The notes beneath the pieces are model-generated. The model worked only from the letters and a program-made list of their open reading frames with translations. It searched no databases and was not told the origin of the DNA. A stretch of DNA of 35,288 bases from an uncultured Clostridia bacterium (lineage in GTDB: Bacteria; Bacillota; Clostridia; Lachnospirales; CAMVHY01). How positions within the stretch are numbered: position 1 is the first letter of the stretch; every line of letters starts with the position of its first letter. Of the stretch, positions 9,783 to 34,968 are shown one piece after another. Location of the stretch: assembly GCA_946415665.1 (NCBI GenBank), contig CAMKTI010000003.1, positions 1 to 35,288 on the forward strand, written 5' to 3'. The position numbers were made by a program, and so were the translations under genes.

Positions 9783-9784
9783 CA

Positions 9785-13026: not shown

Positions 13027-13196
13027 TTTTTTAATATTTACTTATAAATTCAGCCAAAATATTTATATCAAGCGTATTTTCTAAATTTATGTCATGTTTT
13101 TTCGTCTCGTTGATAAATTTTATAGTGAACAGCAAATCAAGATTTGATTTTAAAATTGAGTTTTTGGTTTACCTTTTTTCGTGCAAAAAATATTTT
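13027..13196 (-). repeat. Diverged duplicate of the last ~170 bp of the ECF ATPase gene (matches 13898..14068)
   Basis: Minus strand encodes ILKSNLDLLFTIKFINETKKHDINLENTLDINILAEFISKY* versus ILKSNLDLPFTIKFINEIKKHGINLENTLDINLLAEFISKY*. Confidence 0.93.
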
Positions 13197-13298
13197 GTGC
13201 TTTTGTTAAAAAAATAATTTACAAATAATATTTTTATAGTGATAGAATGATAATGGTTGTATTTTCAATTCGATTTTTTGATAAGGAGGGAGTTTTTT

Positions 13299-13839
13299 GA
13301 TGGATTCGATTCAAAATAAAAATGCTTTGGATATGTATTGGCATCCAGATGGATACTGTCGTTCCACAAAAGTTTCGTCATTACGCATGTCATGGTTGTT
13401 ATTTAAAAGAATCTTTAAGTTAGTTTTTAATGGTTTTGCAAGACCAGATGGTAAAAAACTCGAAGGGACAGTAATTGAGAAGATTTTAGCTGTTGGATAC
13501 GTTTTGTTTGCACTGTTAGGTTGTTTGGCGTTATTAATTGCTTTGGGTGTATTGGCTGATGCTGGTATTGGACCATTATTTTTTATTTTTCTTGGTATTG
13601 GAGCTTCTCTGCTAGGAATTGTCGCGATTGGTACAATTGTATTTAGTGCGATTTATAAAAAAAATATGCCTGAAGATAAAATTTATTTTTATTGTGGCAA
13701 GACCAACAGAGAAAAACAAATATATTTCGCAAGGGGAAACGCCCTGTTTGATATGCCGAAAAAAGGTTTTAAGCCGTATGATGTAAAAAATATTGACACT
13801 AGAAATTTGATCATTCCCCGATCGCAAGTTTATGATTAA
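13299..13839 (+). CDS. Orphan membrane protein with a central two-helix hydrophobic hairpin
   Basis: ~180-aa ORF (start TTG 13297 or the next codon, ATG 13300) behind AAGGAGG RBS; ILAVGYVLFALLGCLALLIALGVLA-DAG-IGPLFFIFLGIGASLLGIVAIGTIVF. Confidence 0.8.
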
Positions 13840-13901
13840 AAAGATTTTCAACGCAACCGTCGCGATTTCAATCGACAAAATTAAACTGCTAACAAAATTT
13901 T

Positions 13902-14729
13902 TTAATATTTACTTATAAATTCAGCCAGAAGATTTATATCAAGTGTATTTTCTAAATTTATGCCATGTTTTTTTATTTCATTAATAAATTTTATAGTAAA
14001 TGGCAAATCAAGATTTGATTTCAAAATTAAATCTTTGGTTTGTTTTTTTTTTGCGCAAAAAATATTTTCTGGCGTATCATCAAAAATTATTTTTGACTTA
14101 TCTAAAATTATTAAGCGATTAAATTTTATTGCTTCCTCTACATCATGCGTAATAAAAATAATTGTCTTTTGATATTTACGATTCAAATCAAAAATTTGTT
14201 CTAAAATATCCTGTTTATCATTTATCATCGATGTCGATTCGTCGAAAATAATATAATCCGGATTCATCGCTAAAATTCCTGCGATAGCAATTTTTTGTTT
14301 TTGTCCGCCGGAAAGATTACTTACAAGCAAATTTTTATATTCAAACATATTAACCATTTTTAATGCATTTTCAACGCGCTGATTTATTTCGTTTTCATCC
14401 AAATTTAAATTTTCCGGACCAAAAGCAATATCTTCACAAATAATATCCGAAACGATTTGATTATCTGGATTTTGAAAAACCATGCCGACTTTCGAACGAA
14501 TTTTATAAATATTATTTTCATCATCATAATTTAAATCGTCCGTAATAATCACACCGGATTTTTTTTTCAATAAATAATTTAATAGGCGAGCCAAAGTTGA
14601 TTTTCCTGAACCGTTTGCTCCCATAAAAGCAATAAGTTCGCCTTGTTTTATTTCTAAATTTATATCATCTAAAATATTTCTTTGTTCGTCACATCCATAA
14701 GCAAAATATAAATTTTTTATTTTTATCAT
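13902..14729 (-). CDS. ecfA: Energy-coupling factor transporter ATPase (EcfA/CbiO family)
   Basis: GANGSGKS Walker A, VFQNPDNQ, DIAFGPENL, LSGGQKQK, IIFDES, ITHD. ATG at 14729 is the likely start. Confidence 0.9.
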   Translation of the reverse strand: MIKIKNLYFAYGCDEQRNILDDINLEIKQGELIAFMGANGSGKSTLARLLNYLLKKKSGVIITDDLNYDDENNIYKIRSKVGMVFQNPDNQIVSDIICEDIAFGPENLNLDENEINQRVENALKMVNMFEYKNLLVSNLSGGQKQKIAIAGILAMNPDYIIFDESTSMINDKQDILEQIFDLNRKYQKTIIFITHDVEEAIKFNRLIILDKSKIIFDDTPENIFCAKKKQTKDLILKSNLDLPFTIKFINEIKKHGINLENTLDINLLAEFISKY

Positions 14730-14823
14730 TTTTTTATCACCCAAGAAAAAAATATTTTTTTTGCACTATAAAATCAAGTTTTTTGATAGAATAGCGTTTA
14801 AAAAATATTTAGGGGATGAAAAA

Positions 14824-16944
14824 ATGCCTGACAATGAAAATAAAAATTATGCGACAAAATTATTTGATTACGTGATGAATTATGAAGATGTTTTAAATTT
14901 TGAAGCTGTTTTTAGTGACGAAACAGAAAATTTTGTTTTGCCAGTAAATATAGAAAAAAATCAGCCGTTTAAAATTAAAATCAGGACGGCAAAAAATAAT
15001 GTGGATGAAATTTATTTATGTTCTGGAATCGAAAGATTTTTGATGCAAAAAATTGAGGATGATGATTTTTTTGATTATTATTTAGCGGAAATTGATGGAC
15101 AGGAAAATAGATTTGAGTATTATTTTGAGCTAAGCAAAAATGAAAAGATTTATTTTTATAACAAAAGAGGTTTATATGATTTTTTAAATCCGGAATATAA
15201 TTTTAATATTATTCCCGGATTTATTGTTCCGGATTGGCTTAAGGGTTCGGTTATGTATCAAATTTATGTCGATAGATTTTATAATGGTGATGAAAAAAAT
15301 GATGTGCTTGATAATGAGTATATTTATTTAGGAAAGCCAGCGAAAAAAATAAAAGATTGGAGTGCTGACGTTTTAAAAGATGATGTTTGTAATTTTTATG
15401 GCGGAGATTTGCAAGGCGTAATAGATAAATTGGATTATATAGAAAGTTTGGAAGTTGAGATTATTTATTTGAATCCGATTTTTGTTTCTCCGAGCAATCA
15501 TAAATATGATATTCAGGATTATGATTATGTTGATCCGCATTATGGAAAAATTGTTGAAGATAGCGGAGAAGTTCTTGATTTAAATAAATTTCATAATAAA
15601 TTCGCGACGAAATATATTTCACGGACAACGGATAAAAAAAATCTTGAGGCTTCGAATAAGTTATTTATAAATCTTGTGAAATTAGCGCATGAACGCGGAA
15701 TAAAAATAATTTTGGATGGTGTTTTTAATCATTGTGGCGCGTTTAATAAATGGCTCGATAAAGAAGGATTTTATTACAAAAATAATTATCCGGCAGGAGC
15801 TTACCGTGACGAAAAAAGCATTTATCACAATTATTTTAGATGGTATGACAAAAACTGGCCGAATAATGATTGTTATGATAGTTGGTGGGGATTTGATAAT
15901 CATCCGAAATTAAATTATGAGAACTCGCCGGAGCTTTTTAAATATATTTTAGAAATCGGAGCGAAATGGGTTAGCGCACCATTTAATGCTGACGGTTGGA
16001 GAGTTGATGTTGCGGCAGATATTGGAATGAGTCCAGAGTTTAATCATGAATTTTGGCGGCAATTCCGTAAGGCAATAAAAAAAGTAAATCCTGAGGCGAT
16101 TATTATTGCTGAACATTATGGCAGTCCAAAAAGTTGGCTCGTTGGTGATCAATGGGATTCTGTTATGAATTATGATGCGTTTATGGAGCCAATAACTTGG
16201 TTTTTAACTGGAATGGAAAAACACAGCGAGAGTTTTAAACACGAAAAATTATGTAATGCGATTGATTTTGAAAATTCGATGAGATATTTTATGTCGCAAT
16301 TTAGTTTTCAATCGCTTTATTCGGCAATGAATGAATTATCGAATCATGATCATTCAAGATTTTTGACGCGAACAAATAAAATTGTTGGGCGGCTTGGACA
16401 AAAAAATTCGCGTGAGGCAGAAGAAAATGTTGATAAAAATGTAATGATGGAAGCCGTCGTTTTTCAAATGACTTGGCCGGGATGTCCTACGATTTATTAT
16501 GGCGATGAAGTTGGATTGGCGGGATGGTCTGATCCGGATAATCGTCGGCCTTTCCCTTGGGATAATCAGGATAAAAATTTGCTTGAGCTGCATAAATTTT
16601 TGGCGCATGTGCATAAAAAAAGTCGAGCATTAAAAGTTGGTTCGCTTGAATATTTATATTTGAATCATGGAATAATTTCGTTCGGCAGATGGCTTGATCA
16701 AGAAAAATTTGTGGTTGTGCTAAATAATAATGATTGTGAAAAAGAAATTTTTGTGCCGGTTTGGAAAATTGGTTTGGATGAAAAAGAAAAGTTAAAAAAA
16801 ATAATTTTGACGGGCGAAAATAAATTTGATGTGAATGAAGATGTTTTTGATGTGAAAGATGGTTTTGTAAAGTTAATTTTAAACGGAAAAAGTTCGATTG
16901 TATTAAAAAATATTTTTGAACGAGAAAAGTCGAGCGCGAGTTAA
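14824..16944 (+). CDS. GH13 alpha-glycosidase (neopullulanase/cyclomaltodextrinase-like)
   Basis: YQIYVDRF, GGDLQGV, SNHKYD, DGVFNH, DGWRVDVA, AEH, SNHDHSR, YYGDEVG, DPDNRRPFPW; ATG 14824 behind AGGGG. Confidence 0.93.
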   Translation: MPDNENKNYATKLFDYVMNYEDVLNFEAVFSDETENFVLPVNIEKNQPFKIKIRTAKNNVDEIYLCSGIERFLMQKIEDDDFFDYYLAEIDGQENRFEYYFELSKNEKIYFYNKRGLYDFLNPEYNFNIIPGFIVPDWLKGSVMYQIYVDRFYNGDEKNDVLDNEYIYLGKPAKKIKDWSADVLKDDVCNFYGGDLQGVIDKLDYIESLEVEIIYLNPIFVSPSNHKYDIQDYDYVDPHYGKIVEDSGEVLDLNKFHNKFATKYISRTTDKKNLEASNKLFINLVKLAHERGIKIILDGVFNHCGAFNKWLDKEGFYYKNNYPAGAYRDEKSIYHNYFRWYDKNWPNNDCYDSWWGFDNHPKLNYENSPELFKYILEIGAKWVSAPFNADGWRVDVAADIGMSPEFNHEFWRQFRKAIKKVNPEAIIIAEHYGSPKSWLVGDQWDSVMNYDAFMEPITWFLTGMEKHSESFKHEKLCNAIDFENSMRYFMSQFSFQSLYSAMNELSNHDHSRFLTRTNKIVGRLGQKNSREAEENVDKNVMMEAVVFQMTWPGCPTIYYGDEVGLAGWSDPDNRRPFPWDNQDKNLLELHKFLAHVHKKSRALKVGSLEYLYLNHGIISFGRWLDQEKFVVVLNNNDCEKEIFVPVWKIGLDEKEKLKKIILTGENKFDVNEDVFDVKDGFVKLILNGKSSIVLKNIFEREKSSAS

Positions 16945-16981
16945 AGTCGCGTTTTTTTTGTGCCAAAATAAAATTTGAATT
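16935..16981 (+). repeat. Terminator-containing direct repeat, copy 1 (copy 2 at 18900..18944)
   Basis: CGCGAgttaaagTCGCGTTTTTTTTgtGCCAAAATAAAATTTGAATT versus CGCGAttttaatTCGCGTTTTTTTTGCCAAAATAAAATTTGAATT. Confidence 0.85.
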
Positions 16982-17042
16982 CGTTTGATTATGTATTTTT
17001 GAGCTGAAACTAAAATCATTAGAAAAATATTTTTGTTATCTC

Positions 17043-17071
17043 TTGACAAATAAAAATTTTTGTTTTATAAT
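17043..17071 (+). promoter_or_regulatory. Consensus sigma-A promoter of the 584-aa orphan
   Basis: TTGACA-17 bp-TATAAT; GGAGGAG RBS before ATG 17110. Confidence 0.85.
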
Positions 17072-17109
17072 CTATTATATTATAGAAGATTTTGGAGGAG
17101 TGATTTGAA

Positions 17110-18864
17110 ATGAAAGAAAACGATGGTGATAGTTTAAATTTATTTTTGGGTGATAATAATTCAAAAAAAGATAAATCTAATAACAATACAAACAAACAGG
17201 AACAAAATCAAATTATGATGAATAAAAGTGATTATTCCGAAATCTTAGCGGATGAATCGGTAATTAAAAAAATAAAAGAGAGCGAACAATTAAGCATTGA
17301 TAAAATGAAAAACATTATAGACAAATGTTTTAAAGCAAAGCGTAAAGACCCAAACGCAAATATTATTGATGAGGATTTTTTGCGTTTAGTTTGGAGTTTT
17401 AATTTTAGGTATTACAAAGCTAAGAATAAAACATGTTCTTCTATTGATTATGCATCGGTAAATAAGAATCAATTAAATAATTTGGTTCAGCAACATCCTA
17501 GTGAGTTTTTTCATTGTCTTTATAAGCTTGATATTAAATTTGACGATTTATATATTATCGCCCAAGAAGCGATAAAAAATAGTGATTATAACAGAGAATT
17601 ATCGAGCAGATATCCGAATCAATATAATATTACTCATAAACCTTGGCGTAATAGTATTGCTGACAAAATGTTTTATGATTCGAAAAAAACTTTGGATGTC
17701 AAATTTTTTGTTTGGTTGAATGAAAATGGTTACTTTGCTAAACACGATGAAATTGTTTTTTATCAGTCTTCCGGTCACCATTTTAAGGCAAGTTCTGAGA
17801 AGTTGCCAGCAATTGACGAATTCGAAAATATTTGTAAAAAAAGAAAAGAAGAGAGAATAGGAAATTATAAATTTGAGACGTTTGATGAATTTAAAAAGTT
17901 TGTTGGTCTTGACAAAGACGATGATCAATATAAAAAAGAATATTACCCAAATGTAGCGGTTTCTGTAAAATCATTGTCCGAGATTTTGAAAAAGGAAAAT
18001 AAATTTTTAACCAAAGATGAATTTATAAAACTGATAAATAGAGAAAATATATTTTTTGATAAACCGGGAAATCTCACTGAAGATGATATTAAAGGATGGG
18101 ATAATTATAAAGACTTTGTTAATAAATTAGGAAAAATGACTGACGAAGAAAGAAAAAAAAGACGTGAATCTAGAAAAAAACTTTGGGAATACATGGAGCA
18201 TATTCTTTTTGGTAATCCGAGAAAACAAAATACTCAAGGGCTAACCGATATAAGAAATTTAGACGATGCCGATCTAGAAAATATCGCTGATTGTTTGTCA
18301 AAAAAGTTTGAGTTTTTTACTGGTATAAGCTTATTGTGTGATAATGATGACATTTTCGATAACAAAAAAGACGAAAAGAATAATGAATTCAAATACAGAA
18401 ATTATATTGTTAATAGTTTAAAAAATTTTAAGGGTTTATTCCCATTACTGGAGAATTGCGAAATTAAGCCACAAATAAAAATCGATTTACCGGAGCTAGA
18501 ACAAAAAATAAAAATAACAGGACAAGATAGAAATAAGCTTGTGACGTCCCAGAATGCAACTAGCAGCTGGAAAAGATTAACTGCCGGAATAATTTTATTG
18601 GTGTTTGGAGTTATTGGCTGTGGTAGTGTGGTTTTGGGCTTAGGTTTGGCAAGTAAACTTGCTGTTGCTTTGTTGTTTTTGTTTGTATTTATGATAATCA
18701 CCGGTACATTGTGTTTGTTGTGGAAAAAAATTAGTGATTGTTTAGCTCCGTGTTGTTCGCAAATATTTGATTCAAGGTATCAAAAAAGTTTGATTGACAA
18801 AAGTAAAATTATCAAGCAGGAAATAAATTTCAATTTAACGACCAATAACATCTTGCAAAAATGA
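17110..18864 (+). CDS. Orphan protein with C-terminal hydrophobic hairpin and juxtamembrane Cys cluster
   Basis: 584 aa with ~490 hydrophilic residues, then AGIILLVFGVIGCGSVVLGLG / LAVALLFLFVFMIITGTLCLLW, then DCLAPCC; no signal peptide; no family recognised. Confidence 0.85.
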   Translation: MKENDGDSLNLFLGDNNSKKDKSNNNTNKQEQNQIMMNKSDYSEILADESVIKKIKESEQLSIDKMKNIIDKCFKAKRKDPNANIIDEDFLRLVWSFNFRYYKAKNKTCSSIDYASVNKNQLNNLVQQHPSEFFHCLYKLDIKFDDLYIIAQEAIKNSDYNRELSSRYPNQYNITHKPWRNSIADKMFYDSKKTLDVKFFVWLNENGYFAKHDEIVFYQSSGHHFKASSEKLPAIDEFENICKKRKEERIGNYKFETFDEFKKFVGLDKDDDQYKKEYYPNVAVSVKSLSEILKKENKFLTKDEFIKLINRENIFFDKPGNLTEDDIKGWDNYKDFVNKLGKMTDEERKKRRESRKKLWEYMEHILFGNPRKQNTQGLTDIRNLDDADLENIADCLSKKFEFFTGISLLCDNDDIFDNKKDEKNNEFKYRNYIVNSLKNFKGLFPLLENCEIKPQIKIDLPELEQKIKITGQDRNKLVTSQNATSSWKRLTAGIILLVFGVIGCGSVVLGLGLASKLAVALLFLFVFMIITGTLCLLWKKISDCLAPCCSQIFDSRYQKSLIDKSKIIKQEINFNLTTNNILQK

Positions 18865-18896
18865 ATTAAATAAGTATTATTATACAGCAAATGATA

Positions 18897-18944
18897 AAAC
18901 GCGATTTTAATTCGCGTTTTTTTTGCCAAAATAAAATTTGAATT
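18897..18944 (+). terminator. Intrinsic terminator (direct repeat copy 2)
   Basis: AAAACGCGA-ttttaat-TCGCGTTTT then T-run. Confidence 0.8.
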
Positions 18945-18974
18945 TATTGGAATATATGGATCCAATCAACTTTT

Positions 18975-19040
18975 TTTCAGTAACATAGATGCAACATTTT
19001 TGTTAACCCCCATTTTGAACGTCACATGATCTGTTCCTGA
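18975..19040 (-). pseudogene. Small IS5 transposase fragment
   Basis: Minus strand QIM*RSKWGLTKMLHLCY resembles the GRSKGGLTTKxHL motif region of the type B copies. Confidence 0.5.
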
Positions 19041-19262
19041 TTATTTTTATTGTGGAAAAAATATAATTGGCGAAACAAAAATAAATACAAGTGGAGAAAA
19101 TATTAATTTAAAGCCCGCAAGAATGACAATTATTCAAAAATAGAGATAAAAAAAACAAAACTGTGTACCTGTTACACAGTTTTATTTATGTAAATAAATT
19201 TTTTAAGCATAAGAAATTATGTGCTGTGAATAAATTTCAATAACATCAACGTTTTTTTTTAG

Positions 19263-19745
19263 TTGATAAATAAGGTGATGACTTTGGATTTTTTGGCGAA
19301 TTATATTAAAAATATTTTGCTCTGTGTGATTTTTTCGATATGCATTGAAATGATTTTGCCAAACGATAAATATAAAAAATATATTAATTTAGTCTCGGGC
19401 TTAATTTTAATTTTGGTAATAATTTTTCCAATAAAAAACTTCTACAACAAATATTTTATTTGTAATAGAAATAATTTTTCAGTAGATAAATATGACAAAA
19501 AAATTTTTGTTTGCGATATTTATAAGCAAAGTATAAATAAGCAGATAAATCTTTTAGCAAAAAAAATGGGAATAAAAATTTTGGATTCTGAAATTGAAGT
19601 CAAAGAAGAAAATAATACGTGTGAAATAAAAAATATAAAAATTAATTTTGGTGACGATTGTAAAGTTGATGACAAAAAAAAATTTTTATATGCGTTGGGT
19701 TTGATTTATAAAATCGGCGCTGAAAATATAATTTGTGGCCAATAA
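19263..19745 (+). CDS. spoIIIAF: Stage III sporulation protein AF-like
   Basis: YIKNILL...IEMILPNDKYKKYINLVSGLILILVIIFPI signature; upstream of AG/AH. Confidence 0.82.
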   Translation: MINKVMTLDFLANYIKNILLCVIFSICIEMILPNDKYKKYINLVSGLILILVIIFPIKNFYNKYFICNRNNFSVDKYDKKIFVCDIYKQSINKQINLLAKKMGIKILDSEIEVKEENNTCEIKNIKINFGDDCKVDDKKKFLYALGLIYKIGAENIICGQ

Positions 19746-19963
19746 ATAGAAAAAAAATAAATTGGTAAGCAAAGTTGAATTTATTTTTTGAGAATAATTT
19801 TTTAGCTAGCGAAATATAAAAATTACATAAGCTTTATTTCGGTTTGAAAATAATTTGTTAGTTAAGGAGTGATTTAAGTAATCAAAAATATTTTTTTTGA
19901 AACAAAAAATTTATTTAAGGAATCGATTTAATCGCGTGCAAAATTTTTTGAGGTGGTAAACAA

Positions 19964-20521
19964 ATGAGCCTGATACAAAAATTTTTTGTTAATCAGGATA
20001 AAAATATCGGATTGAAATTAATTTTTGGTTTGCTTTTGGGAATAGTTTTGTTGTTTATAAGTAATTCAGACAAAAAAAAAATTAATACAGGCGAAAAAAA
20101 TATTTTTGAGACAGAAAAAAAAATTGATTTTGATTGTGATGTGTATGAGAAAAAATTGGAGTTAAAACTAGAAAATTTATTGTCACAAGTAAAAGGTGCA
20201 GGAAATATAAAAGTAATGATAAGTATATTTAACGGAAAAGAAATTTTGCTTGCGCAAGATATAAATTCAAGCGAATCAAAAATTAATGAAAATGATAAAT
20301 CTGGTAGCACAAAAGAAACGTTTGAGCAAAAAAAAGAAACCAAAAAAATAATTATTAATGATAAGCCACTGATAATAAAAGAAATTATGCCGGAGATTAC
20401 CGGAGCAATTATTGTTGCAGAAGGAGGAGATAATGCGTTTATAAAAAGTGAATTAATACGAGCAACACAAATTATTTTAAATATCGATGTCCATAAAATT
20501 CGTGTTTTAAAAATGAAATAA
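19964..20521 (+). CDS. spoIIIAG: Stage III sporulation protein AG
   Basis: N-terminal TM, YEKKLELKLENLLSQVKGAGNIKVMI, PEITGAIIVAEGGDN...HKIRVLKM. Confidence 0.92.
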   Translation: MSLIQKFFVNQDKNIGLKLIFGLLLGIVLLFISNSDKKKINTGEKNIFETEKKIDFDCDVYEKKLELKLENLLSQVKGAGNIKVMISIFNGKEILLAQDINSSESKINENDKSGSTKETFEQKKETKKIIINDKPLIIKEIMPEITGAIIVAEGGDNAFIKSELIRATQIILNIDVHKIRVLKMK

Positions 20522-20536
20522 AAAATAAATTTTGGA

Positions 20537-21190
20537 GTGAAAAAAATGTTTGTCATAAAACGAAATCATGTGATTATAGTTGCTTTGGTAATAATGGTTG
20601 GAGTTGCTGGATATTTAAATTACATGGATAATAATTTAAAAAATGACGAAATAATTTTAAATGATAACGGAGAAATTTCTGCGCTTGTGCCGGATGAAAA
20701 CTTGCCGGTCAATGCAAATCTTGATTCACAAATAGAAATGGATTTTGATAAAAAAAATAGTAAAAAAAATAAGTTTGAAAGCAAAAATGATTTTGAAGAA
20801 AGTGATAATGATGCAATCGCTGTAAATAAATCAATGGAAAATTCTTATTTTGTTCAAGCAAAACTTGACAGGGAACAAGCTAGAGCTAAACAAAAAGAAA
20901 TTCTTGATGATATGATTAATAATAAAAATTTGAGTGAAAGTAAAAAAACGGAATGTGTGGATAATAAAATCGAAATTCAAAAGAGAATAGAAAAAGAAAG
21001 TGCGGCTGAATCTTTACTAGAGTCAAAAGGTTTTGATGAAACTTATGTAAGAATTGATGATGAAACGGTTGATGTTGTAATAAATAAAGAAATGCTTTCG
21101 GATGCAGAAGTCGCACAAATAGAAGATATAGTTAAAAGAAAAACTGGTTTTAAAGCAAGTCAAATAAGAATTAGTACGTTAAAAAAATAA
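20537..21190 (+). CDS. spoIIIAH: Stage III sporulation protein AH-like
   Basis: KRNHVIIVALVIMVGVAGYLNY, YFVQAKLDREQAR, ESLLESKGF...VDVVI...QIEDIVKRKTG. Confidence 0.92.
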   Translation: MKKMFVIKRNHVIIVALVIMVGVAGYLNYMDNNLKNDEIILNDNGEISALVPDENLPVNANLDSQIEMDFDKKNSKKNKFESKNDFEESDNDAIAVNKSMENSYFVQAKLDREQARAKQKEILDDMINNKNLSESKKTECVDNKIEIQKRIEKESAAESLLESKGFDETYVRIDDETVDVVINKEMLSDAEVAQIEDIVKRKTGFKASQIRISTLKK

Positions 21191-21376
21191 ATAAACAAAA
21201 ATAAAAAGTAGCCGAAGAAAAATTATTTTTTATAGATTTTAAAGCTTAATCTAATATCAGATGCATAAAAATTTTTTTTGCCGTACACAAAAAACGCGCT
21301 TTTAAAACAAAGTTCGTTTTTTTTATTAATTGTGTTATAGTTTGCATAAATTAAATTAAAGGTGGCTGTGTTTTTT

Positions 21377-22816: not shown

Positions 22817-23274
22817 TTTAGCCTGAAAATACTACTCCGTATAAGTTTTTGACGTTGATTTATATTAAAATTAATAAAAAAGATAGAGACAAAATGTTTT
22901 CCACCTCTATTTTTTTTTTTGTAAAATAAATATTCAGAAGCTCTATTATAGAGAATTAATCATTTCTTATCACCAAACTATAATTTTTCTTTATAATATA
23001 GTTAAAAATAAAATATTTAAGCACAAACAAATTCTCGGATTGGGATAAAAATCAGACCGAAAGTTTTTTGTTTGTTGGATAAAGATTTTGTATGAGTCGT
23101 ATTTTCTCGTCGAAAAATATTTTGGTAGAATAAACATTGCTTCTGAGTAGAAAATAAATTTTTATGAAATCAAAAAAGATATTTGGAAGGTTATTTTACG
23201 ACTAAAACCAAAAGAAATTATCAAGGCGAAATAATGTTTTTTGTTTTGGTTATGCCATAGTAAACGGTATTGAC

Positions 23275-24150: not shown

Positions 24151-24951
24151 TCATTGTTGTTTACTATAGAACGAAAGCTGAAGAAATCTTGGAGTTATTG
24201 TTATTTTTCGGTGGAATAGTTTTTGTCTCTTTGATTTTACTTGAATTTTTACCATTTGGATGCTGGAGAATCGGTGTGTGCTACATTTGCTTTTGTTGGC
24301 GCAAGTCGTTTTGTTCTCACTAACAGTTTTACAGAAGATCATAATATGTACGAAAATAATCCTGGGCAAGGCTTTGTCGATAACGCATCGGGAGTTTTCC
24401 TGTTTTTTAAGTTGATTGTTTTTCCTACGTTTTTAGTTGTTGCCGGAATTGTACTTATAGTTTTTGGATTCGGTCAGCTTGGTGTTTTAGGTTTTTGTTT
24501 TGGAATGCCAAGTTTAGGCTTATCAATTATGGCACTGATAAATATTGTTTGTGGTAATCGTGGCATGTGTAATGGCTATGAAAATTATAATGATAATTTT
24601 TGGTACACTCACAATTCTGATAATTTATGGAGCACCTTTATGATCATGACTGGTTTCATGTCTATTACTATATTTGAAATTTTGGAATTGATGTGAGTTT
24701 GTACTTGGCAAACTGTTTTAGCTCTCGGTTCACCAGTAATTGCTTTTGCTATATCGATTGTAATTATTTTTGGTGTTACGTATGGCATATATAAATATAG
24801 GTGTAATTTAAGCCCAAAAGTTCAAAACTTAAAATATCAAAATAAAAATTCTAGTAATTTTATACAAATATTAAATCAAAAAAACCGGAAAGAAGATGAA
24901 AAACCGCATTGCTGGTTTTTAGGTCTTGGTTTTGGCATAAGAGAACACTGA
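24151..24951 (+). pseudogene. Disrupted orphan multi-pass membrane protein
   Basis: ORF 24241..24696 has TM segments; the same frame continues past TGA with another TM (LALGSPVIAFAISIVIIFGVTYGI) to TGA 24949-24951; upstream TM segment in another frame abuts the IS630. Confidence 0.6.
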
Positions 24952-27429: not shown

Positions 27430-27585
27430 TGTTGCCTCCGAAATTTTTAATTTAAAATTAATTTATAATATGTGACAAGCAGAAAAACAGTTAAAAAAAA
27501 CTTGTTTTAGACAGCAACAAAAAAAGCACATCAAGAACGACGCGCTTTAGTTTTTTTTATTCTTTAATTCTTGGAGTTCAACGAT

Positions 27586-28434
27586 TTATAAAATGTCAGT
27601 TTTTTCAATAACTTCACAATCCGACGGAATTTTATTATATCGATTTTCTTTGTCGACCTGTTGAAATGATGTAGCCCATTCATTTTCGTTTTGATATTTA
27701 AAAAAGTAAATATCTGTTCTAAGTTTTTGTCTGTTAAAATAAACATTACAAAAGGTAACAACAAGTTTTGAAGCCACTGCCACAATCGCTAACACAAAAA
27801 GCCATTTCGGTACCGTTATTAAAAAACATGAGACAACCGTTATCCAAAACGAGATACCAACAATAATGTGTAATATATTACAATATATCGATTTCCATTT
27901 TGTTTCACGGTAGATGTTTTCTCCTGATAAAAAATTTTTTCCAACAAAACCACCAAAATATATATTTCCAATAATCCTAAAAAAATCACCAATCAAAGTA
28001 GTCGGTTTATTTTTATAAAATTTATCACCATATTCATAAAATTTGGCATGATTTTTCGCCTGTTTTTCCACTTTTTGTTGTTTTTTTTTTGACCGTTTTA
28101 TGTAATCGTCGCGGTAAAGAATAGCACCCAGTACAATTAAACATAAATTAGCCGCCATTGCCACAATCACCAATACAAAAAGCCATGTTGGCAGTGTTAT
28201 TAAAAAATACGAAACAAACAATACTACAGGTAATGATTCGATTGTTAGAAAAAAAATGTTACTAACGAAACCCAAAAACCTATTTAGAATCTCTTCTCCC
28301 GCAACTAAACCAATAAAACCACCGAAATAAATATGTGCAAGCACTTCAAAAAAACAAACTAACAAGTTAGGTTTTCGCGGCGCTTGGGGATTTTCCCCTC
28401 CCGCAAAATCAATTTTTTTTTCACTATTTTCCAT
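27586..28434 (-). CDS. Orphan membrane protein with internal duplication, paralog 1
   Basis: Two copies of P..L...FF....IYFGGF(I/V)G ... S(Y/C)FLIT(L/V)P(T/K)WLFVL.IV; ATG 28434 (MENSEKK) behind GGAGG. Confidence 0.85.
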   Translation of the reverse strand: MENSEKKIDFAGGENPQAPRKPNLLVCFFEVLAHIYFGGFIGLVAGEEILNRFLGFVSNIFFLTIESLPVVLFVSYFLITLPTWLFVLVIVAMAANLCLIVLGAILYRDDYIKRSKKKQQKVEKQAKNHAKFYEYGDKFYKNKPTTLIGDFFRIIGNIYFGGFVGKNFLSGENIYRETKWKSIYCNILHIIVGISFWITVVSCFLITVPKWLFVLAIVAVASKLVVTFCNVYFNRQKLRTDIYFFKYQNENEWATSFQQVDKENRYNKIPSDCEVIEKTDIL

Positions 28435-28519
28435 TTTTATTTTAACCTCCACTTTTTAATAATATTTTGGATTAAGTGTTAAACCAAAAAAGATGTCATT
28501 TAACATACCCCACATAATA

Positions 28520-28548
28520 ATCTTAAAACATTTTTTTTTATTTGTCAA
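28520..28548 (-). promoter_or_regulatory. Sigma-A promoter of paralog 1
   Basis: TTGACA-17 bp (containing A9)-TAAGAT. Confidence 0.7.
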
Positions 28549-28592
28549 GATCTAAACCAAAAATTTTTATAAGCTTCATGATTTTTAGACAT

Positions 28593-28637
28593 AAAAAAAT
28601 ACATGCTCGTTTTATTTTTTCACAAGCATGTATTTTT
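28593..28637. terminator. Hairpin terminator between the paralogs
   Basis: AAAAATACATGCT...AGCATGTATTTTT inverted repeat. Confidence 0.65.
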
Positions 28638-28713
28638 GTTATCGCTAAAAATTTTTTTCCTTGCCACAAGTGAATTACCTTTTTCGACTCACTCAAATTA
28701 TCACTAAACGTTC

Positions 28714-29556
28714 TTATCGATGTAAAACATTTTGTGAACTAATAGATTCAAAATCCGGAACATCAGCTCGATTTTCTTCTCCTACCTGCTTAAGTGATGC
28801 ATGGACTATACTTTCGCCTCGGCATTTACAGAAGAAAAGATCTTTCATTGCTGTTTGTCTCTTACAATAAGAAACACAAAAGTTATTAGCCAATTTTACA
28901 ACCGCCGCTACAATCGCCAATACAAAAAGCCATGTTGGTACCGTTATGAAAAAACACGGAATAACCAGAGCCCAAAAACAGAGCATGTAAATGATCACGT
29001 TAATATTATATTTAGCCATGTCCAATCTCTTGATTTTTTCTCCGTACATAAAATCTTTCCCAAACAAAAAAGCAAGATACTTAGTTCCAATATATCTAAA
29101 AAAATCGCCAATCAAAGTAGTCGGTCTGTTTTTATAAAATACACCGGCATATTTGTAACACTTGACATGATTTTTTGCCTTTTCTTCTGCTTTTTGTTGT
29201 TTCTTTTCTGAAGATTTTGTTTGTGTCTGACGTGAGTCCGGGACTTTTTGTGCCATATTGGTTGCAATTACCAAATTGTATAAATCAACAACCATCTTTA
29301 CAATCGCCAACACAAAAAGCCATGTCGGCAGTGTTATTAAAAAATAAGAAACAAACAACACTATAGGTAATAGTTTGATTATTAGAACAAAGATGTTACT
29401 AATGGAATCTAAAAACCTGTTCGAATACTTTTTTTCAAAAAATAAATCTTTCCCAATAAAACCACTTAAAAAAGTATTTACAAGTACTTTAAAAAAACAA
29501 GTGAACCAGCTCGGCTTTCGAGGCAGTTTTTTCTCAAGATCAAGTTTTTTTTCCAT
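28714..29556 (-). CDS. Orphan membrane protein with internal duplication, paralog 2
   Basis: Colinear with paralog 1 (PRKP, VLFVSYFLITLPTWLFVL, KKQQK.E..AKNH, FYKN.PTTLIGDFFR); upstream ~120 bp also duplicated. Confidence 0.85.
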   Translation of the reverse strand: MEKKLDLEKKLPRKPSWFTCFFKVLVNTFLSGFIGKDLFFEKKYSNRFLDSISNIFVLIIKLLPIVLFVSYFLITLPTWLFVLAIVKMVVDLYNLVIATNMAQKVPDSRQTQTKSSEKKQQKAEEKAKNHVKCYKYAGVFYKNRPTTLIGDFFRYIGTKYLAFLFGKDFMYGEKIKRLDMAKYNINVIIYMLCFWALVIPCFFITVPTWLFVLAIVAAVVKLANNFCVSYCKRQTAMKDLFFCKCRGESIVHASLKQVGEENRADVPDFESISSQNVLHR

Positions 29557-29676
29557 TTTTTATTTTAACCTCCATTATTTAACAATATTTTGGAAATAAG
29601 CATCAAACAAATAAAATGTCATTTAACACCGCCTTCATAACAATTTTAAAACATTTTTTTTATTTGTCAAGATTTA

Positions 29677-30369
29677 GAGAGCGTTCACATAAAAAACAAG
29701 TCAAAAATAAAAGCAATGGAGATGGTAGAGATAAAAATAGAATCAAGCTTATCGTAGCGAGTAAAAACTTTTCTAAAACATTTCAATCTCAGGAAATATC
29801 TTTCGATATTATTGCGTTGTTTATAAAGTTGTTTATCATAACTCCAAGGCAACTTACGATTTTTTTTTAGGCGGGACAACAGTCTTAAACCCGTGATCCT
29901 CGGCTAAAACTAAAGTTTTATCACCTTCGGGAGCATCGTGATAATTACCAGGAGACAAACGAAAAATCGCCGGACATGAAGATATACAACATGGGTACAA
30001 TTTTGTTGTTAACTTTCTTTTGAACATCTGATGCTTTGTTACTGATTATTTTTATTCTTGTTTGCATCTGGACTCACCTTTATGCTCGTACTATCAATAA
30101 AGAATATATAATCTTCTTCATTAAGAAGTTTTTGCTTTTTCATAGCTTCTAAACTTAAGGTTGTAAAAAAAAACAATAGCTTTTGGCAATTGTACCATTC
30201 CATATTTTTTTGGTAATACCCTCCATTTGCAACCATTCTCTATTATGTAAAGCATTGCATACATGAATTTGTAGATTTGATATTTTCGCCGACTTCCTTG
30301 CTATCGGCATTAATTCCTCTAGCTTTTTACATTGTAGTTTTGTCAGTTTCATTTTTCTATCTTACCACT
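29677..30369 (-). mobile_element. IS5-family 'type B' copy, frameshifted, left end lost
   Basis: Right IR GAGAGCGTTCACATAAAA after TA; fragments MKLTKLQCKKL, FIDSTSIKVSPDA, YKQRNNIERYFLRLK..RKVFTRYDKL. Confidence 0.9.
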
Positions 30370-30473
30370 GTGCAATACTTTACATAAAAGAGAATGGTTT
30401 CAAATAAAGAGTACTACCAAAAAAATATAAAAATTGGCACATAACTAAACTTTAGATTGAATAAATATTGAGT

Positions 30474-30502
30474 TTGACAATGATCGTGTTGAAATATAAA
30501 AT
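30474..30502 (+). promoter_or_regulatory. Sigma-A promoter upstream of the truncated acyltransferase copy
   Basis: TTGACA-17 bp-TAAAAT. Confidence 0.65.
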
Positions 30503-30613
30503 TCCGTAGAAATAATTTTTGCAATTAAATTAATGGCTAAATAATTTTAAGCATGTTGTTTTTATTTTATGTTTATGAATCAAAAAATTTAATAAGAGGC
30601 TGATTTTGAAATA

Positions 30614-30841
30614 ATGAGTGAAGAACGAGAAAAAATAATTTTGCCAGACAGAAAAATTTATTTGGATTATTTGAGAGTGTTTGCAATTTTTGCAATGATA
30701 ATGTTACATGTGGCAAGTCAAAATTGGGCTTATATAAATGTAAATAGTTCTACTTGGCAAATATTTAATTTTTTTGATGGAATTTTAAGATGGTGTGTAC
30801 CGATTTTCGTAATGATAAGCGGAAATTTATTTTTTGGATAA
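30614..30841 (+). pseudogene. 5' fragment duplicate of the acyltransferase at 33898
   Basis: First 73 codons nearly identical to 33898.. (one amino-acid difference, several silent changes); RBS region also duplicated. Confidence 0.93.
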
Positions 30842-31232
30842 AAAAATTTATGATGAGAAAAAAAATTATTATTTAAGTGAGCTAGAAAAAGTTAGCCATG
30901 GAATTTATTCGAGTGGGTTTTATTTGGGTGATAAAAAAAATGAAATTTATGAGAGTAGCAGTTATATAAATAATTATGATTTTGTCGGGATAGTAAAGGA
31001 TTTTGACGAGAAAAATTTTTTTGCAGTGGTTGAGCAGAGAAATAAAATTAAAATCGGGGATGAAATAGAAATTTTAGGCAAGAAAAAGATTTTTTATATG
31101 AAAGTAAAGGAAATGTTTGATAATGATGGAAATGAAATAAAAGAAGCACCGCATGCGCAACAGATTATAAAAATTAAAATGGATTTTAAGATTGAAAAAA
31201 TGGATTTAATGAGAAGAAAAATAGTTTGTTGA
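30834..31232 (+). pseudogene. C-terminal fragment of a U32-family (TrhP/YegQ-like) protein
   Basis: ELEKVSH..YSSGFY, YDFVGIV, VEQRNKIKIGDEIEI, EAPHAQQ, DLMRR match the U32 C-terminal domain; catalytic domain and RBS absent. Confidence 0.75.
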
Positions 31233-31304
31233 ATATAAGTAAAATTAGTTTTTGAGCGTAAAGAATATATGGCAAATATAAAAATTTTGTTTGCAGTTGA
31301 TTAA

Positions 31305-33263
31305 TTAATTATCTATTGTACCATCTCTATCAGCTGGGCTATGTCGATCTGATCCTTGAGCGCCTATAAAATTCTCTTTTCCTTGACTTTGTTCTTGTAT
31401 GTGTTGTATGGATTTATTAGAGCTATATTGTTCCCCGTAAGCTCCAATTTTGTTGGGCAGGGGAGTATAAAGTTTTGTATGTATATAAATTAAGATGATC
31501 CCGACAACTATTGGTACAAGTGGAGGAAGTATAACAACTAACAGACTCAATGCCTCAATAAGTAATAATTTTATTATTAACGTGATAACAAATCCGAGCA
31601 CACCTAAAATTATTGCAGCAATTCCAATATTTCTGAATTTGTTTGAAGGTTTTTGAGTAGAACTGGATTGGGATGAATTACGAGTTTCTTCCGTTTTAGA
31701 TTTACCATTATTACCATTAAAATTAATTTGTTCAATATATTTTTTATTTGCAATATCAATATTTTTCCCTTTATTATATTCACGTTCATTTTGATTGGCG
31801 ACTTGGTTATTGTTGTTATATGGATTATTGCTTTTTCTATCTTCGTTCAAATTTATTTCAGAGTTATTGTTTGTAACATCGTTATTGTTTGTAACATTTG
31901 CTTTTAAAACATCTTCTTTTTGTCCTAAAATATCTGTTTCAATTTTATTTATCTTCTGTTGATCTATTTCGTTTTCAATTGATCTTTCAGAATCAGGAAA
32001 ATCGCTTACATGAACCACTGTGCTAGGTTTTATATTCTTTTTTGCAGGTGTGTCAAGCTCACCTGAAATGGAATCAATAGTACTCATTTTATCGTTATTT
32101 ATATTCTTAAGATACATAACATGCTCGGAGTTTCGTAGGTCACCTGGATTGTTTCCAGTCCCTATCAAAACTAATTTCTTAGACGTAAGATTTTGTTGTA
32201 TATTTTCAACTGTATCGTTCTTGTTATTGGAATCCAGCTTTTTATTGTTTTTTCCGAGAATTATCTGAATACCTACTGATTCGAGTCCATGGTCAATATC
32301 CTGCATATCGAATTTTTTTTCAATATCACCTGAGCTAAGCGTTCTACTTCCATCTTTTTCTAGCGATCCTATATTATTCCAATCAATTCCTAAAACTGTT
32401 CTCTGTCCTTTCACATATTTATATATATCATATTGAGGCTCATTATAACAGTTTTTAAATTTATTTATGCCCATCATAACACATACAGCTTTTTCCAGCA
32501 TTATAATCCATAAAGGTCTCTTATCTTTATCCGGTCTAGTTTTATCCACAACAATATCGACAGGCAATCCATCCTCATCATGAAGTCGTACAACAGCTTT
32601 GTTAGGGCGTTGCTCAATGTCGTTGTCTACATCTTCATTACTTTTATCATCTGCATTTTCTTTGCCTTGATTGTTATCTGGATAATCTCGCACCATTTTT
32701 TTCGGAATATATTTTGCATCGTGATCGATAATTCCTATTATTATCGACAAAAACCAGCAATCCTGGACATCAGATTTTTGTCTTACTGAAAACCTACCAT
32801 CTGGAAGATAAGGATTTGCCTTATCTATCTTTTCACAGTATTGTGAGGGGTTGTTTTTGACTCTGCTTTTTTCATATCTGGGTAAATAATCAAGTACCAA
32901 TGCATCTTTATTATTTTGTTCGGTGCAGCCTTTAGGATAAAGTAATTCACTCCAATTATTAGAATCTTCTTCTTTAAAAAATTCAAAAAGTGCGTTGTCT
33001 GCGTCACCATAACGCTTTGGTGCTTTACAATTATCACCAAAACATTCATCCGGAACATAAACTACAGGAACTTTTTTGTTTTTCGCAAATCGTTTTATAC
33101 AGTCTATTCTGTTTTTATGATATATAAGCTTTTCGTTCTCATCTGGTGATAATTCTTCTTTTTTAGATTTTTCTTGTAGTTTTTTAAATTCTTCACAATG
33201 TTTTTCAAATGAATCATAAACAATCCAATCAATGCCATCACTTGCAATATTTTTATTTTCCAT
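31305..33263 (-). CDS. Calpain-like (peptidase C2) cysteine protease with C-terminal hydrophobic hairpin
   Basis: VRQKSDVQDCWFLS, VDIVVDKTRP, LWIIMLEKA, LRNSEHVMYL; Asn-rich linker; two TM helices; ATG 33263 behind GGGAGG. Confidence 0.72.
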   Translation of the reverse strand: MENKNIASDGIDWIVYDSFEKHCEEFKKLQEKSKKEELSPDENEKLIYHKNRIDCIKRFAKNKKVPVVYVPDECFGDNCKAPKRYGDADNALFEFFKEEDSNNWSELLYPKGCTEQNNKDALVLDYLPRYEKSRVKNNPSQYCEKIDKANPYLPDGRFSVRQKSDVQDCWFLSIIIGIIDHDAKYIPKKMVRDYPDNNQGKENADDKSNEDVDNDIEQRPNKAVVRLHDEDGLPVDIVVDKTRPDKDKRPLWIIMLEKAVCVMMGINKFKNCYNEPQYDIYKYVKGQRTVLGIDWNNIGSLEKDGSRTLSSGDIEKKFDMQDIDHGLESVGIQIILGKNNKKLDSNNKNDTVENIQQNLTSKKLVLIGTGNNPGDLRNSEHVMYLKNINNDKMSTIDSISGELDTPAKKNIKPSTVVHVSDFPDSERSIENEIDQQKINKIETDILGQKEDVLKANVTNNNDVTNNNSEINLNEDRKSNNPYNNNNQVANQNEREYNKGKNIDIANKKYIEQINFNGNNGKSKTEETRNSSQSSSTQKPSNKFRNIGIAAIILGVLGFVITLIIKLLLIEALSLLVVILPPLVPIVVGIILIYIHTKLYTPLPNKIGAYGEQYSSNKSIQHIQEQSQGKENFIGAQGSDRHSPADRDGTIDN

Positions 33264-33873
33264 AATTTTTTGCCTCCCTTGTATCAATAAAAAAACAAAA
33301 AATGAACCGTTTATATATTATTATAATAAATCCAAAAGACAATGTCAACTGTTTTTATTAACATTTATTCATTAAACAAAAAAATTAATTCGATAAATTG
33401 TTTTTTTCAGATCTTTCTTTTAGTTATTTAACACTTTGACGATGGCATTTAAATGAATCATAAGCACCCCAATCAATACCATCACTTGCAATATTTTTAT
33501 TTTCCATAATTTTTTGCCTCCCTTGTATCAACAAAAAAACAAAAAACAAACCATTCATATGTTATTATAATAAATCCAAAAGATAATGTCAACTGTTTTT
33601 ATTAACATTTATTCATTAAACAAAAAAATTAATTCGATAAATTGTTTTTTTCAGATCTTTCTTTTAGTTATTTAACACTTTGACGATGGCATTTAAATGA
33701 ATCATAAGCACCCCAATCAATACCATCACTTGCAATATTTTTATTTTCCATAATTTTTTGCCTCCCTTGTATCAACAAAAAAACAAAAAACAAACTATTC
33801 ATATGTTATTATAATAAATCCAAAAGACAATGTCAGCTGTTTTTATTAATATTTATCCATTAAACAAAAAAAT
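33148..33873 (-). repeat. Three tandem 244-bp units, each promoter + RBS + 5' end of the protease gene
   Basis: Period exactly 244 bp (ATGs at 33263, 33507, 33751). Promoters TTGACA-17-TATAAT at 33320-33348 and 33564-33592; CTGACA variant at 33808-33836. Confidence 0.95.
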
Positions 33874-33897
33874 AACTAAGAGGTTGATTTTAAAATA

Positions 33898-34968
33898 ATG
33901 AGTGAAGAACGAGAAAAAATAATTTTGCCAGACAGAAAAATTTATTTAGATTACTTAAGAGTGTTTGCAATTTTTGCGATGATAATGTTACATGTAGCAA
34001 GTCAAAACTGGGCTTATATAAATGTAAATAGTTTCACTTGGCAAATATTTAATTTTTTTGATGGAATTTTAAGATGGTGTGTACCAATTTTTGTAATGAT
34101 AAGCGGAAACTTATTTTTGAGTAAAGAAATTCTGATTAAAAAATTATATTTTAAGTATATCCTGCGCTTAATAATCGCTTTTTTGTTTTGGTCTTGTTTT
34201 TATGCGTTGGTTGATATTAAAGAAAAAAATTTTATTTCTGTGTATTCGGAATTTATTACGGGGCATTATCATATGTGGTTTATTTTAATGATAATCGGTT
34301 TATATATTTGTGTGCCTTTTATAAAATTAGTTGCTAATAACAAAAATATATCGAGATATTATTTATTAATAACATTTTTGTTTGCGTTTTTTTTGCCACA
34401 AGTTGTTACGCTAGTCAACGATTTTGGTGCAAATTACATGATTAAGGCAGTTTCCAAAATAAATTGCAATATGTCTTTTATGTACATGAATAATGTTGTT
34501 GCTGGATTTGTGCCTTATTTTATTTTAGGGAATTATTTAGATAAAACGGAGCTTAATAAAAAAACAAGAATGATTATTTATATAATGGGCGTATTAGGTT
34601 TTTTTTTAACTGTATATTTAAGTTGGATAGTTTCTGTTAAGGCACAAATTGCGCTTGAAAATTATTATGGACCGTGGCGAGTAAATGTTTTATTTGAAAG
34701 TGTTGCTGTGTATATATGGTTTAAATATAAAAAATATAATGTAAAGAAATTAAATGCGGTTGTTGTTAAGTTATCGAAATATAGTTTCGGAGCTTATTTA
34801 GTTCATGCGTTTGTAATTGAAAAATTAGACATTTTTTTTAGCTTAAATAGTCTGTCTTTTAATCCTATTTTTTCGGTTGTTTTAATAGGCGTCTTGGTAT
34901 TTATTGTTTCGTTTATGATTTCTGGAATTTTAAATAATATTCCTAGTTTAAAAAAATATATTGTGTAA
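33898..34968 (+). CDS. Acyltransferase family 3 membrane protein (WecH-like O-acetyltransferase)
   Basis: YLDYLRVFAIFAMIMLH, RWCVPIFVMISG, HYHMWF, SFGAYLVH; about ten TM helices. Confidence 0.88.
   Translation: MSEEREKIILPDRKIYLDYLRVFAIFAMIMLHVASQNWAYINVNSFTWQIFNFFDGILRWCVPIFVMISGNLFLSKEILIKKLYFKYILRLIIAFLFWSCFYALVDIKEKNFISVYSEFITGHYHMWFILMIIGLYICVPFIKLVANNKNISRYYLLITFLFAFFLPQVVTLVNDFGANYMIKAVSKINCNMSFMYMNNVVAGFVPYFILGNYLDKTELNKKTRMIIYIMGVLGFFLTVYLSWIVSVKAQIALENYYGPWRVNVLFESVAVYIWFKYKKYNVKKLNAVVVKLSKYSFGAYLVHAFVIEKLDIFFSLNSLSFNPIFSVVLIGVLVFIVSFMISGILNNIPSLKKYIV

Follow-up and report, generated by a model that had tools for sequence, protein, structure and literature searches.

This study concerns a 35,288-nt stretch of DNA from an uncultured Clostridia bacterium (assembly GCA_946415665.1, contig CAMKTI010000003.1), hereafter the window, which is one complete assembled contig with a G+C content of ~29%. 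At three loci in the window, a gene for a protein with a hydrophobic hairpin lies between two copies of the end of a neighboring gene: o180 next to the transporter ATPase gene ecfA (locus 1), o584 next to a GH13 glycoside hydrolase gene (locus 2), and o660 next to an acyltransferase gene (locus 3). We see about an even chance that these three genes encode resident, fast-evolving, lineage-specific membrane proteins situated in variable stretches scarred by insertion sequences (IS), and that the partial copies of their neighbors are scars of recombination rather than traces of delivery. Under this explanation, a segment containing the membrane gene and the end of its neighbor would first have been duplicated locally through an illegitimate joint, such as the 8-9 nt microhomology seen at locus 3, and the outer copy of the membrane gene would then have been lost through an IS5-linked deletion or rearrangement, leaving a short fragment of the neighbor beside an IS remnant. 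At locus 3, a related lineage would also have contributed through homologous exchange, either at the duplication step or later. We infer that the genes reside in relatives, that the events took this order, and that an outer copy was lost; the explanation as a whole accounts for the bordering IS remnants, the stopping of homology at IS ends, the truncated U32 peptidase gene at locus 3, the tandem duplications nearby, and the apparent occurrence of the genes in relatives.

The repeats were examined by self-BLASTN of the window and by pairwise alignment. The paired segments are 13006-13199 and 13877-14071 at locus 1 (85% identity, E 1.6e-55), 16935-16992 and 18900-18955 at locus 2 (84% identity, E 1.8e-10), and 30557-30878 and 33838-34156 at locus 3 (88% identity, E 1.3e-113). 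At locus 3 the genuine homology stops at ~30831/34115, beyond which the match is a chance likeness of U32 and acyltransferase sequences; its coding part is ~95% identical. All three pairs are real, and a preliminary description of the window had placed them within ~40 nt of these positions. Several further points of that description hold as well. The flanking repeats are copies of the neighboring gene's own end, host sequence bounds the insert on either side in direct repeat, one copy per locus runs on into the target gene, and the target genes are intact (ecfA, 275 aa; GH13, 706 aa; acyltransferase, 356 aa as in relatives). The three pairs have no common sequence, as self-BLASTN gave no cross-match between them, and they are neither att sites nor target-site duplications, having no shared core, unequal lengths (194, 58, and ~275 nt), and 84-95% identity. 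Only the neighbor's end is repeated; self-BLASTN did not detect a second copy of the whole unit, including the enclosed gene, at any of the three loci. Each enclosed protein (o180, o584, and o660) contains a hydrophobic hairpin in a Kyte-Doolittle scan.

Genomes of relatives were scanned using the alanine symporter as an anchor, which returned 46 loci. The only close relatives among these were L001 and L002, two contigs of one metagenome-assembled genome (MAG) named 'uncultured Clostridia bacterium'; the remaining 44 loci, from other taxa and with 30-42% protein identity, were set aside. The related MAG is 94% identical to the window at the nucleotide level over 3.6 kb, and its contig L001 spans only window positions 19561-23172, outside all three loci. 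Co-location of genes in relatives was instead judged from identical longest-contig values reported for individual proteins, a comparison in which adjacency is forced only for a contig of 1355 nt, and in which the remaining homologues, having no matching value, say nothing either way, since many contigs are short and just the longest one is given for each protein. At locus 1, EcfA P0031 (89% identity) and the o180-like partial ORF (open reading frame) P0141 both report this 1355-nt contig, which has room for little besides the two of them. At locus 2, members of the window's GH13 90% cluster report contigs of 34124, 30993, and 132121 nt (among the 15 of 25 members listed), the same values as those reported by the o584-family proteins P0014, P0144, and P0011; EcfA P0023 also reports 34124 nt. 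At locus 3, a full-length U32 peptidase (P0162), an acyltransferase (P0150), an o660-like protein (P0007), and DprA (P0268) all report 26901 nt, and the o660 homologue P0003 shares a value of 141215 nt with TagA and MntP members. This indirect but consistent pattern suggests that o180, o584, and o660, or members of their families, stand beside the same neighbors in relatives, and that U32-o660-acyltransferase is probably the usual arrangement; it points against empty sites at these loci.

The enclosed genes evolve far faster than their surroundings, with nearest homologues at 32-79% identity versus 90% or more for the neighbors. Both o180 and o660 have seven homologues (28-67% and 27-79% identity, respectively) and o584 has six (32-66% identity), all of them metagenome-derived and without names. 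The preliminary description had regarded the three as orphan genes installed by the event that created the repeats. Their homologues show the first of these claims to be wrong, and their apparent location on the same contigs as the ecfA, GH13, and U32 plus acyltransferase genes of relatives speaks against the second; because the enclosed genes appear there with the same neighbors, they are probably resident and not delivered. Ancestry of the genes at these sites in relatives, which the preliminary description had named as the finding that would contradict it, is indirectly what the identical longest-contig values indicate. In addition, no match to o180, o584, or o660 was found in plasmid and phage records by tblastn.

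An IS5-family remnant lies no more than ~115 nt from one repeat copy at all three loci. The window contains three degraded copies of one IS5-family element, IS_A (9782-10642), IS_B (12378-13000, plus strand), and IS_C (29674-30441, minus strand). IS_B, which aligns with IS_A and IS_C and has a DDE_Tnp_1_2 domain, carries the terminal motif TGTGAACGCT at 12384-12393 on the minus strand and at 12985-12994 on the plus strand; an ORF within it (12795-12989) matches the IS5 transposase model NF033580 at 1.3e-15, under the cut-off, and 6 nt lie between its right inverted repeat and the left copy of locus 1. The right end of IS_C abuts the promoter of o280, while ~115 nt separate its rearranged left end from the left copy of locus 3; the element also contains an internal inverted duplication (30202-30259/30428-30371). 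At locus 2, an internal IS5-family fragment on the minus strand (18916-19051) overlaps or abuts the right copy, matches IS_A 10322-10382 and IS_C 29988-30056 by BLASTN, and is colinear in alignment with the IS copies and with L002. The assignment of these degraded copies to IS5 follows from NF033580 matches of 1.3e-15 and 1.5e-14 on sub-cut-off fragments and from the domains DUF4096 and DDE_Tnp_1_2, and the IS5 inverted-repeat motif occurs five times in the window compared to 1.08 expected. A remnant of an IS630 element is located at 23275-23966. No integrase or recombinase gene was found among the 36 window ORFs in a Pfam scan, only fragments of IS5- and IS630-type DDE transposases; the earlier statement that the window lacks an integrase is thus literally true, but it passes over the degraded IS5 copies that border all three loci and the IS630 remnant. 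IS_B and IS_C lie in opposite orientations, right ends toward each other, on either side of a 16.7-kb block that runs from ecfA to o280. Large-scale gene order may differ between relatives.

At locus 1, the intact ECF-transporter ATPase gene ecfA (13902-14729, minus strand; ABC_tran) encodes a protein that is 94-97% identical to those of 13 relatives and that scores 302.8 bits against TIGR04520 (EcfA1 equivalog; cut-off 315). The right copy (13877-14071, minus strand) is the 3' end of this gene, and the left copy (13006-13199, minus strand) is a decayed version of it, comprising the last ~56 codons and 25 nt downstream. Across 49 codons, the fragment differs from the intact copy by 19 nt, distributed over the codon positions as 4, 5, and 10 (p = 0.065), and it holds an in-frame stop. 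Of its eight amino-acid differences, six are private and two (D and I) are common states in intact relatives. The fragment is an old, decayed pseudogene.

A similar layout occurs in the related MAG, where L002 5403-6988 contains a 408-aa gene without a Pfam family between two 68-nt copies (88% identity) of the L28 terminator region, and where the outer copy begins directly at an IS5-type right end, as at locus 1. These coincidences could suggest a break-repair patch, in which a transposase nick and a second nick 60-300 nt away, or template switching, copied a short stretch at the IS end without duplicating the membrane gene. At locus 1 and in L002, the duplicated stretch does begin 0-6 nt from the right end of an IS, the homology between o280 and o288 likewise ends at the right end of IS_C, and the copied stretches are short (58-275 nt) with a source less than 3.3 kb away. 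Nevertheless, the mechanism is speculative, and we consider it very improbable: the IS at locus 3 is ~115 nt off and faces the opposite direction, the piece at locus 2 is an internal fragment, the near-synonymous divergence at locus 3 (see below) is left unexplained, and a deletion ending at the IS is a simpler account of the same coincidence.

The enclosed gene o180 (13300-13839, plus strand) encodes a membrane protein of 179 aa whose hydrophobic hairpin lies centrally (hydrophobic stretch at residues 58-120); the protein is present in the protein collection in exactly this form and matched no Pfam or NCBIfam family. One of its homologues has an IncD match below threshold (E 0.008, 16.4 bits versus a cut-off of 27). 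Another, P0140 of the representative library, has 1617 aa and is matched in 12 stretches, the best of which covers o180 residues 9-97; the region around these residues may be a repeat module of a much larger protein. No ecfA2 or ecfT was found beside ecfA in the Pfam scan of the window. The genes rplM and rpsI, the usual ecfA neighborhood in Bacillus, lie 4.5 kb away with two IS copies between. The spoIIIAF- and spoIIIAH-like genes (19263-21190) are preceded by o584 and the IS fragment rather than by other spoIIIA genes. The isolation of ecfA and of the spoIIIA-like genes suggests broken operons and a rearranged genome.

At locus 2, the GH13 glycoside hydrolase gene (14824-16944, plus strand; alpha-amylase domains), whose 706-aa product is present in the protein collection in exactly this form, ends with seven extra residues, REKSSAS (16924-16944), that are missing in 12 of 13 full-length relatives; its stop codon now lies inside the loop of the terminator hairpin. 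The left copy (16935-16992, plus strand) contains the GH13 terminator hairpin and ~35 nt more, with a terminator-like site at 16932-16954, and the right copy (18900-18955) is also on the plus strand. Between them, o584 (17110-18864, plus strand) encodes a protein of 584 aa whose hydrophobic hairpin is C-terminal and whose tail is Cys-rich; both the hairpin and the tail ('WKKIS.CL..C') are kept in its homologues. None of the Pfam or NCBIfam families matched, and an Atlas search gave no usable match. The consensus promoter of o584 (17043-17071) matches at 12 of 12 positions. Promoter-like sites as a class are about as frequent in the window as in shuffled sequence (41 versus 36.9 and 37 versus 36.8), and only single matches at 11 or 12 of 12 positions are therefore cited here. 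The promoters of o288 and o280 share the motif TCTTGACAAATAAAAA with that of o584. An Rfam scan identified only tRNAs for the window and, for L002, a 6S RNA; it gave no riboswitch or leader within the repeats.

Locus 3 provides the clearest record of a joint. Here the intact acyltransferase gene (33898-34968, plus strand; Acyl_transf_3), one of five 356-aa members of its cluster, begins within the right copy (33838-34115, plus strand). The left copy (30557-30831, plus strand) consists of 57 nt of upstream sequence and the first ~73 codons of the acyltransferase, including the N-terminus of Acyl_transf_3; it encodes a 75-aa ORF (30614-30841), on record in this exact form in three contigs, and has its own upstream promoter-like site (30474-30502, 11 of 12 positions). 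Directly after it comes the truncated 3' end of a U32 peptidase gene, its last 132 codons (30834-31232, plus strand; Peptidase_U32_C, 3.1e-27). In the corresponding 90% cluster of 28 members, the protein is full-length (408-409 aa) in 12 of the 15 members listed; relatives' full-length proteins read ...DDYF-LDKKIYDEKK..., and the window fragment starts at LDKKIY. The novel junction (30823-30831, plus strand) connects acyltransferase codon ~73 to U32 codon ~277 through an 8-9 nt microhomology, TTATTTTT, across which the two reading frames are out of phase. Comparison of the acyltransferase fragment (...GGAAATTTATTTTT) with the intact gene (...GGAAACTTATTTTTGAG) places the joint within this microhomology. 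Illegitimate recombination at this joint cut a chromosomal gene short.

Over 74 codons, 12 nt separate the two acyltransferase 5' copies, and 11 of these 12 differences fall at third positions (binomial test against one third, p = 4.7e-5), corresponding to nine synonymous and two non-synonymous codons and an overall divergence of 5.4%. In the 57 nt upstream of the start codon, 15 positions differ. The third-position bias indicates that the divergence arose while both copies belonged to working genes, and exchange with a related lineage is therefore taken to be part of the history of this locus. Judged from the sequence, the truncated copy may derive from a foreign allele or be what is left of a long-lived paralogue; alternatively, another allele may later have replaced the intact copy. 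The first 50 coding nt are identical in both copies, and residue 4 is E in both but G in nine of nine relatives, a pattern that suggests gene conversion between copies in one genome.

This divergence bears on the route favored in the preliminary description, in which DNA taken up from a related strain, perhaps through transformation, and carrying the membrane gene and a stretch of its neighbor, integrates through the neighbor stretch by a Campbell-type single crossover or by homology-facilitated illegitimate recombination (HFIR), regenerating an intact neighbor. We regard this as possible but fairly doubtful. The geometry fits: the host's sequence is directly repeated, one copy is intact, and locus 3 has one novel microhomology joint; moreover, a mostly synonymous divergence of 5.4%, close to the ~6% that separates the window from the related MAG over 3.6 kb, is expected of a sister-lineage donor, and the left copy retains its own promoter-like site. 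Experimental precedent exists in Escherichia coli, where, according to PMC3240628, part of the homologous locus was duplicated in 56 of 60 recombinant clones; the duplications in the 14 sequenced recombinants measured 109-950 bp and were ascribed to single crossover of circular molecules. A homology-linked route is mechanistically possible in view of this precedent. A role in installing the genes is not supported, and the locus 3 insert begins within the chromosomal U32 gene. Relatives seemingly carry homologues of all three genes by the same neighbors, and the recipient would first have had to lose each of them; in a recipient that already held the gene, the crossover would merely make a tandem duplication and this route would merge with the local duplication that we prefer. 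Furthermore, the stopping of homology at an IS end at locus 1 and in L002 is unexplained, the tblastn searches offered no plasmid or phage source, and both acyltransferase copies share an E4 that is missing in all nine relatives. The intact dprA gene fits the route, and the preliminary description took it to make transformation one possible source; it is weak evidence because the gene is widespread.

A further possibility, mainly for locus 3, is that a second full-length acyltransferase gene lay downstream of IS_C and recombined at codon ~73 with codon ~277 of the U32 gene, the intervening DNA being removed or moved. Two functional paralogues would explain a near-synonymous divergence as well as a left copy with its own promoter-like site and unique upstream sequence, gene conversion in one genome would explain the shared private E4 and the 50 identical starting nt, and an out-of-frame fusion of 5' and 3' fragments at a microhomology is a classic deletion signature. 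The 26901-nt contig of a relative also seems to hold DprA, which hints at a different large-scale gene order. Still, this history seems distinctly unlikely, since only one of all 11 members of the acyltransferase 90% cluster is on the 26901-nt contig, and since it leaves loci 1 and 2 and L002 unexplained, a second ecfA, GH13, or L28 paralogue being unlikely.

The stretch between the two acyltransferase copies is not the self-contained unit of promoter and gene that had been envisaged, as it holds the truncated U32 3' end and an array of three 244-nt units in addition to o660 (31305-33263, minus strand). The array (33148-33879, minus strand) repeats the consensus promoter, ribosome-binding site, start, and ~38 codons of o660; its promoters at 33348-33320 and 33592-33564 match at 12 of 12 positions, and the one at 33836-33808 at 11 of 12. 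The two upstream units each carry an early stop and could represent 27-aa peptides or stacked promoters. The o660 protein has 652 aa, with a C-terminal hydrophobic hairpin and a possible calpain-like protease core. In the family of eight sequences, Q162, C169, and H381 are invariant, and a block RLHDEDGLPVDI..DKTR...RPLW.IMLEKAVCVMM is present; the three residues may be the catalytic Gln, Cys, and His of the calpain type. In an Atlas feature search, 27 of 30 matches were Peptidase_C2 clusters (top score 0.93). However, PF00648 (Peptidase_C2) was detected in none of the eight members at E values up to 10, a profile search of the PDB gave no matches, and the AlphaFold2 model from the eight-sequence alignment was unusable (mean predicted local distance difference test score 37.2). 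The preliminary designation of this gene as calpain-like is accordingly kept here as a lead and not as membership in the family.

The joint at locus 3 and the pseudogene at locus 1 also bear on whether the repeats could be an assembly artefact, created when alleles of two co-occurring strains were strung together into false near-identical repeats. The window's own proteins report a longest contig of 35,288 nt, which makes it a complete metagenomic contig; the divergence between the locus 3 copies resembles that of sister-strain alleles, and many of the relatives' ecfA contigs are short, suggesting a region that is hard to assemble. Even so, such an artefact appears extremely improbable: the novel junctions are unique sequence and the 8-9 nt shared at locus 3 are too few to support a k-mer join, the stop and the decay of the ecfA fragment mark it as a pseudogene rather than a second strain's allele, the exact 75-aa truncated ORF is recorded on three contigs, and a similar layout is found in the independent assembly of L002.

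Duplications of several kinds are found elsewhere in the window. The 3' end of feoB is duplicated in tandem (2480-2884 and 2871-3276, unit 391 nt, 96% identity), with a codon-position split of 5, 1, and 3 that shows no bias. The middles of the two feoB copies are identical, the differences being clustered at both ends, and the second copy is a 133-aa ORF with a Gate domain. The genes o288 and o280 (27586-29556) are tandem paralogues whose proteins are 48% identical and have two hydrophobic hairpins each; their homology ends at the right end of IS_C, and the o280 promoter starts 2-3 nt past that end. Together with the 244-nt array, these are plain tandem duplications with nothing between the copies. 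An enclosed gene is again seen in L001 (3486-6591), where two 172-nt copies of an upstream element (87% identity, BLASTN) flank the gene for an LRR/SLH surface protein of 884 aa. In the window (23002-23275), this element occurs once; after it comes the start of the downstream paralogue, where ACG replaces ATG and an IS630 remnant interrupts the gene. In a recombinant test of the window element against the two L001 copies, the informative sites were interspersed, with no single switch point.

Several observations weigh against local duplication followed by IS-linked deletion. No second copy of the membrane gene is present at any locus, and an extra deletion step is therefore needed at every one of them. 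The occurrence of 11 of 12 differences at third positions is unexpected for a fragment that was non-functional from birth, so that at locus 3 either an inter-lineage exchange of alleles or a long-lived full-length paralogue has to be added. What precedes the left copy of locus 3 is not the 244-nt array but a unique stretch of ~115 nt with its own promoter-like site, and the presence of E4 in both window copies compared to G4 in nine of nine relatives needs gene conversion or an unsampled donor. Finally, the residency of the genes, as we infer it, depends on equal longest-contig values, with adjacency forced only at 1355 nt.

It is conceivable, although we think it unlikely, that exchange is the recurrent process at these loci. 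Circularized chromosomal fragments of sister strains, each consisting of a hairpin membrane gene and a piece of its neighbor, would integrate by single crossover at fixed sites and would swap or stack variant alleles without a dedicated recombinase; the housekeeping neighbors would serve as landing pads, and the IS ends would mark trimmed outer copies. If so, alleles of surface-type genes would be swapped by plain homologous recombination without the machinery of mobile elements. If the more ordinary explanation is true, the window is a useful worked example of the gene-end fragments that are left around variable genes by local duplication, microhomology joints, and IS-linked deletion in an AT-rich uncultured Clostridia lineage, and a warning that such scars resemble a cassette system. 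Each enclosed gene belongs to a small lineage-restricted family that conserves a hydrophobic hairpin, and one of the three families may hold a calpain-like protease core.

The Pfam scan of the 36 window ORFs identified feoB, codY, topA, dprA, rpsI, rplM, a shikimate kinase gene, a DUF3795 gene, and ecfA, as well as the GH13 hydrolase, spoIIIAF- and spoIIIAH-like, alanine symporter, tagA, SLH protein, mntP, and Acyl_transf_3 genes. Five tRNA genes are present. A small hydrophobic-hairpin protein without a family, o151 (24241-24696), is encoded beside the IS630 remnant, and no flanking repeats were found around it.

Compared with known systems, the three loci are best seen as a further case of recombination scarring of known kinds, with homology-linked exchange a possible part of their history. 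The chlamydial Inc-type proteins combine a soluble domain with one bilobed hydrophobic hairpin; the window proteins share this architecture only, without a significant sequence relationship and in a Clostridia-like host. Genomic islands flanked by att sites enter the end of a gene and carry a replacement end, so that, as here, displaced and replacement ends form imperfect direct repeats and the target gene is intact, whereas the window has no integrase gene, there is no core common to the sites, and the 'islands' are single genes also present in relatives. Tandem segmental duplication, decay, and IS-mediated adjacent deletion are established features of bacterial genome dynamics; the window contains clear tandem duplications and homology that ends at IS ends, but its three loci repeat only the neighbor's end, and the divergence at locus 3 is synonymous. 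Campbell insertion-duplication likewise leaves an insert between direct repeats of host sequence, with one intact and one truncated target copy and with variable repeat length (109-950 bp in PMC3240628 versus 58-275 nt here). It differs from the window in that the enclosed genes are seemingly resident, searches gave no circular or plasmid source, the repeats have diverged by 5-16%, and the borders carry IS remnants. HFIR, as described in the same paper, usually replaces recipient DNA with a deletion of about the size of the insert, unlike the window, where recipient sequence is duplicated; the two nevertheless agree in having one homologous and one illegitimate end, and the 8-9 nt shared at the locus 3 joint fall within the 3-10 bp of microhomology that is usual at HFIR junctions (PMC3240628).

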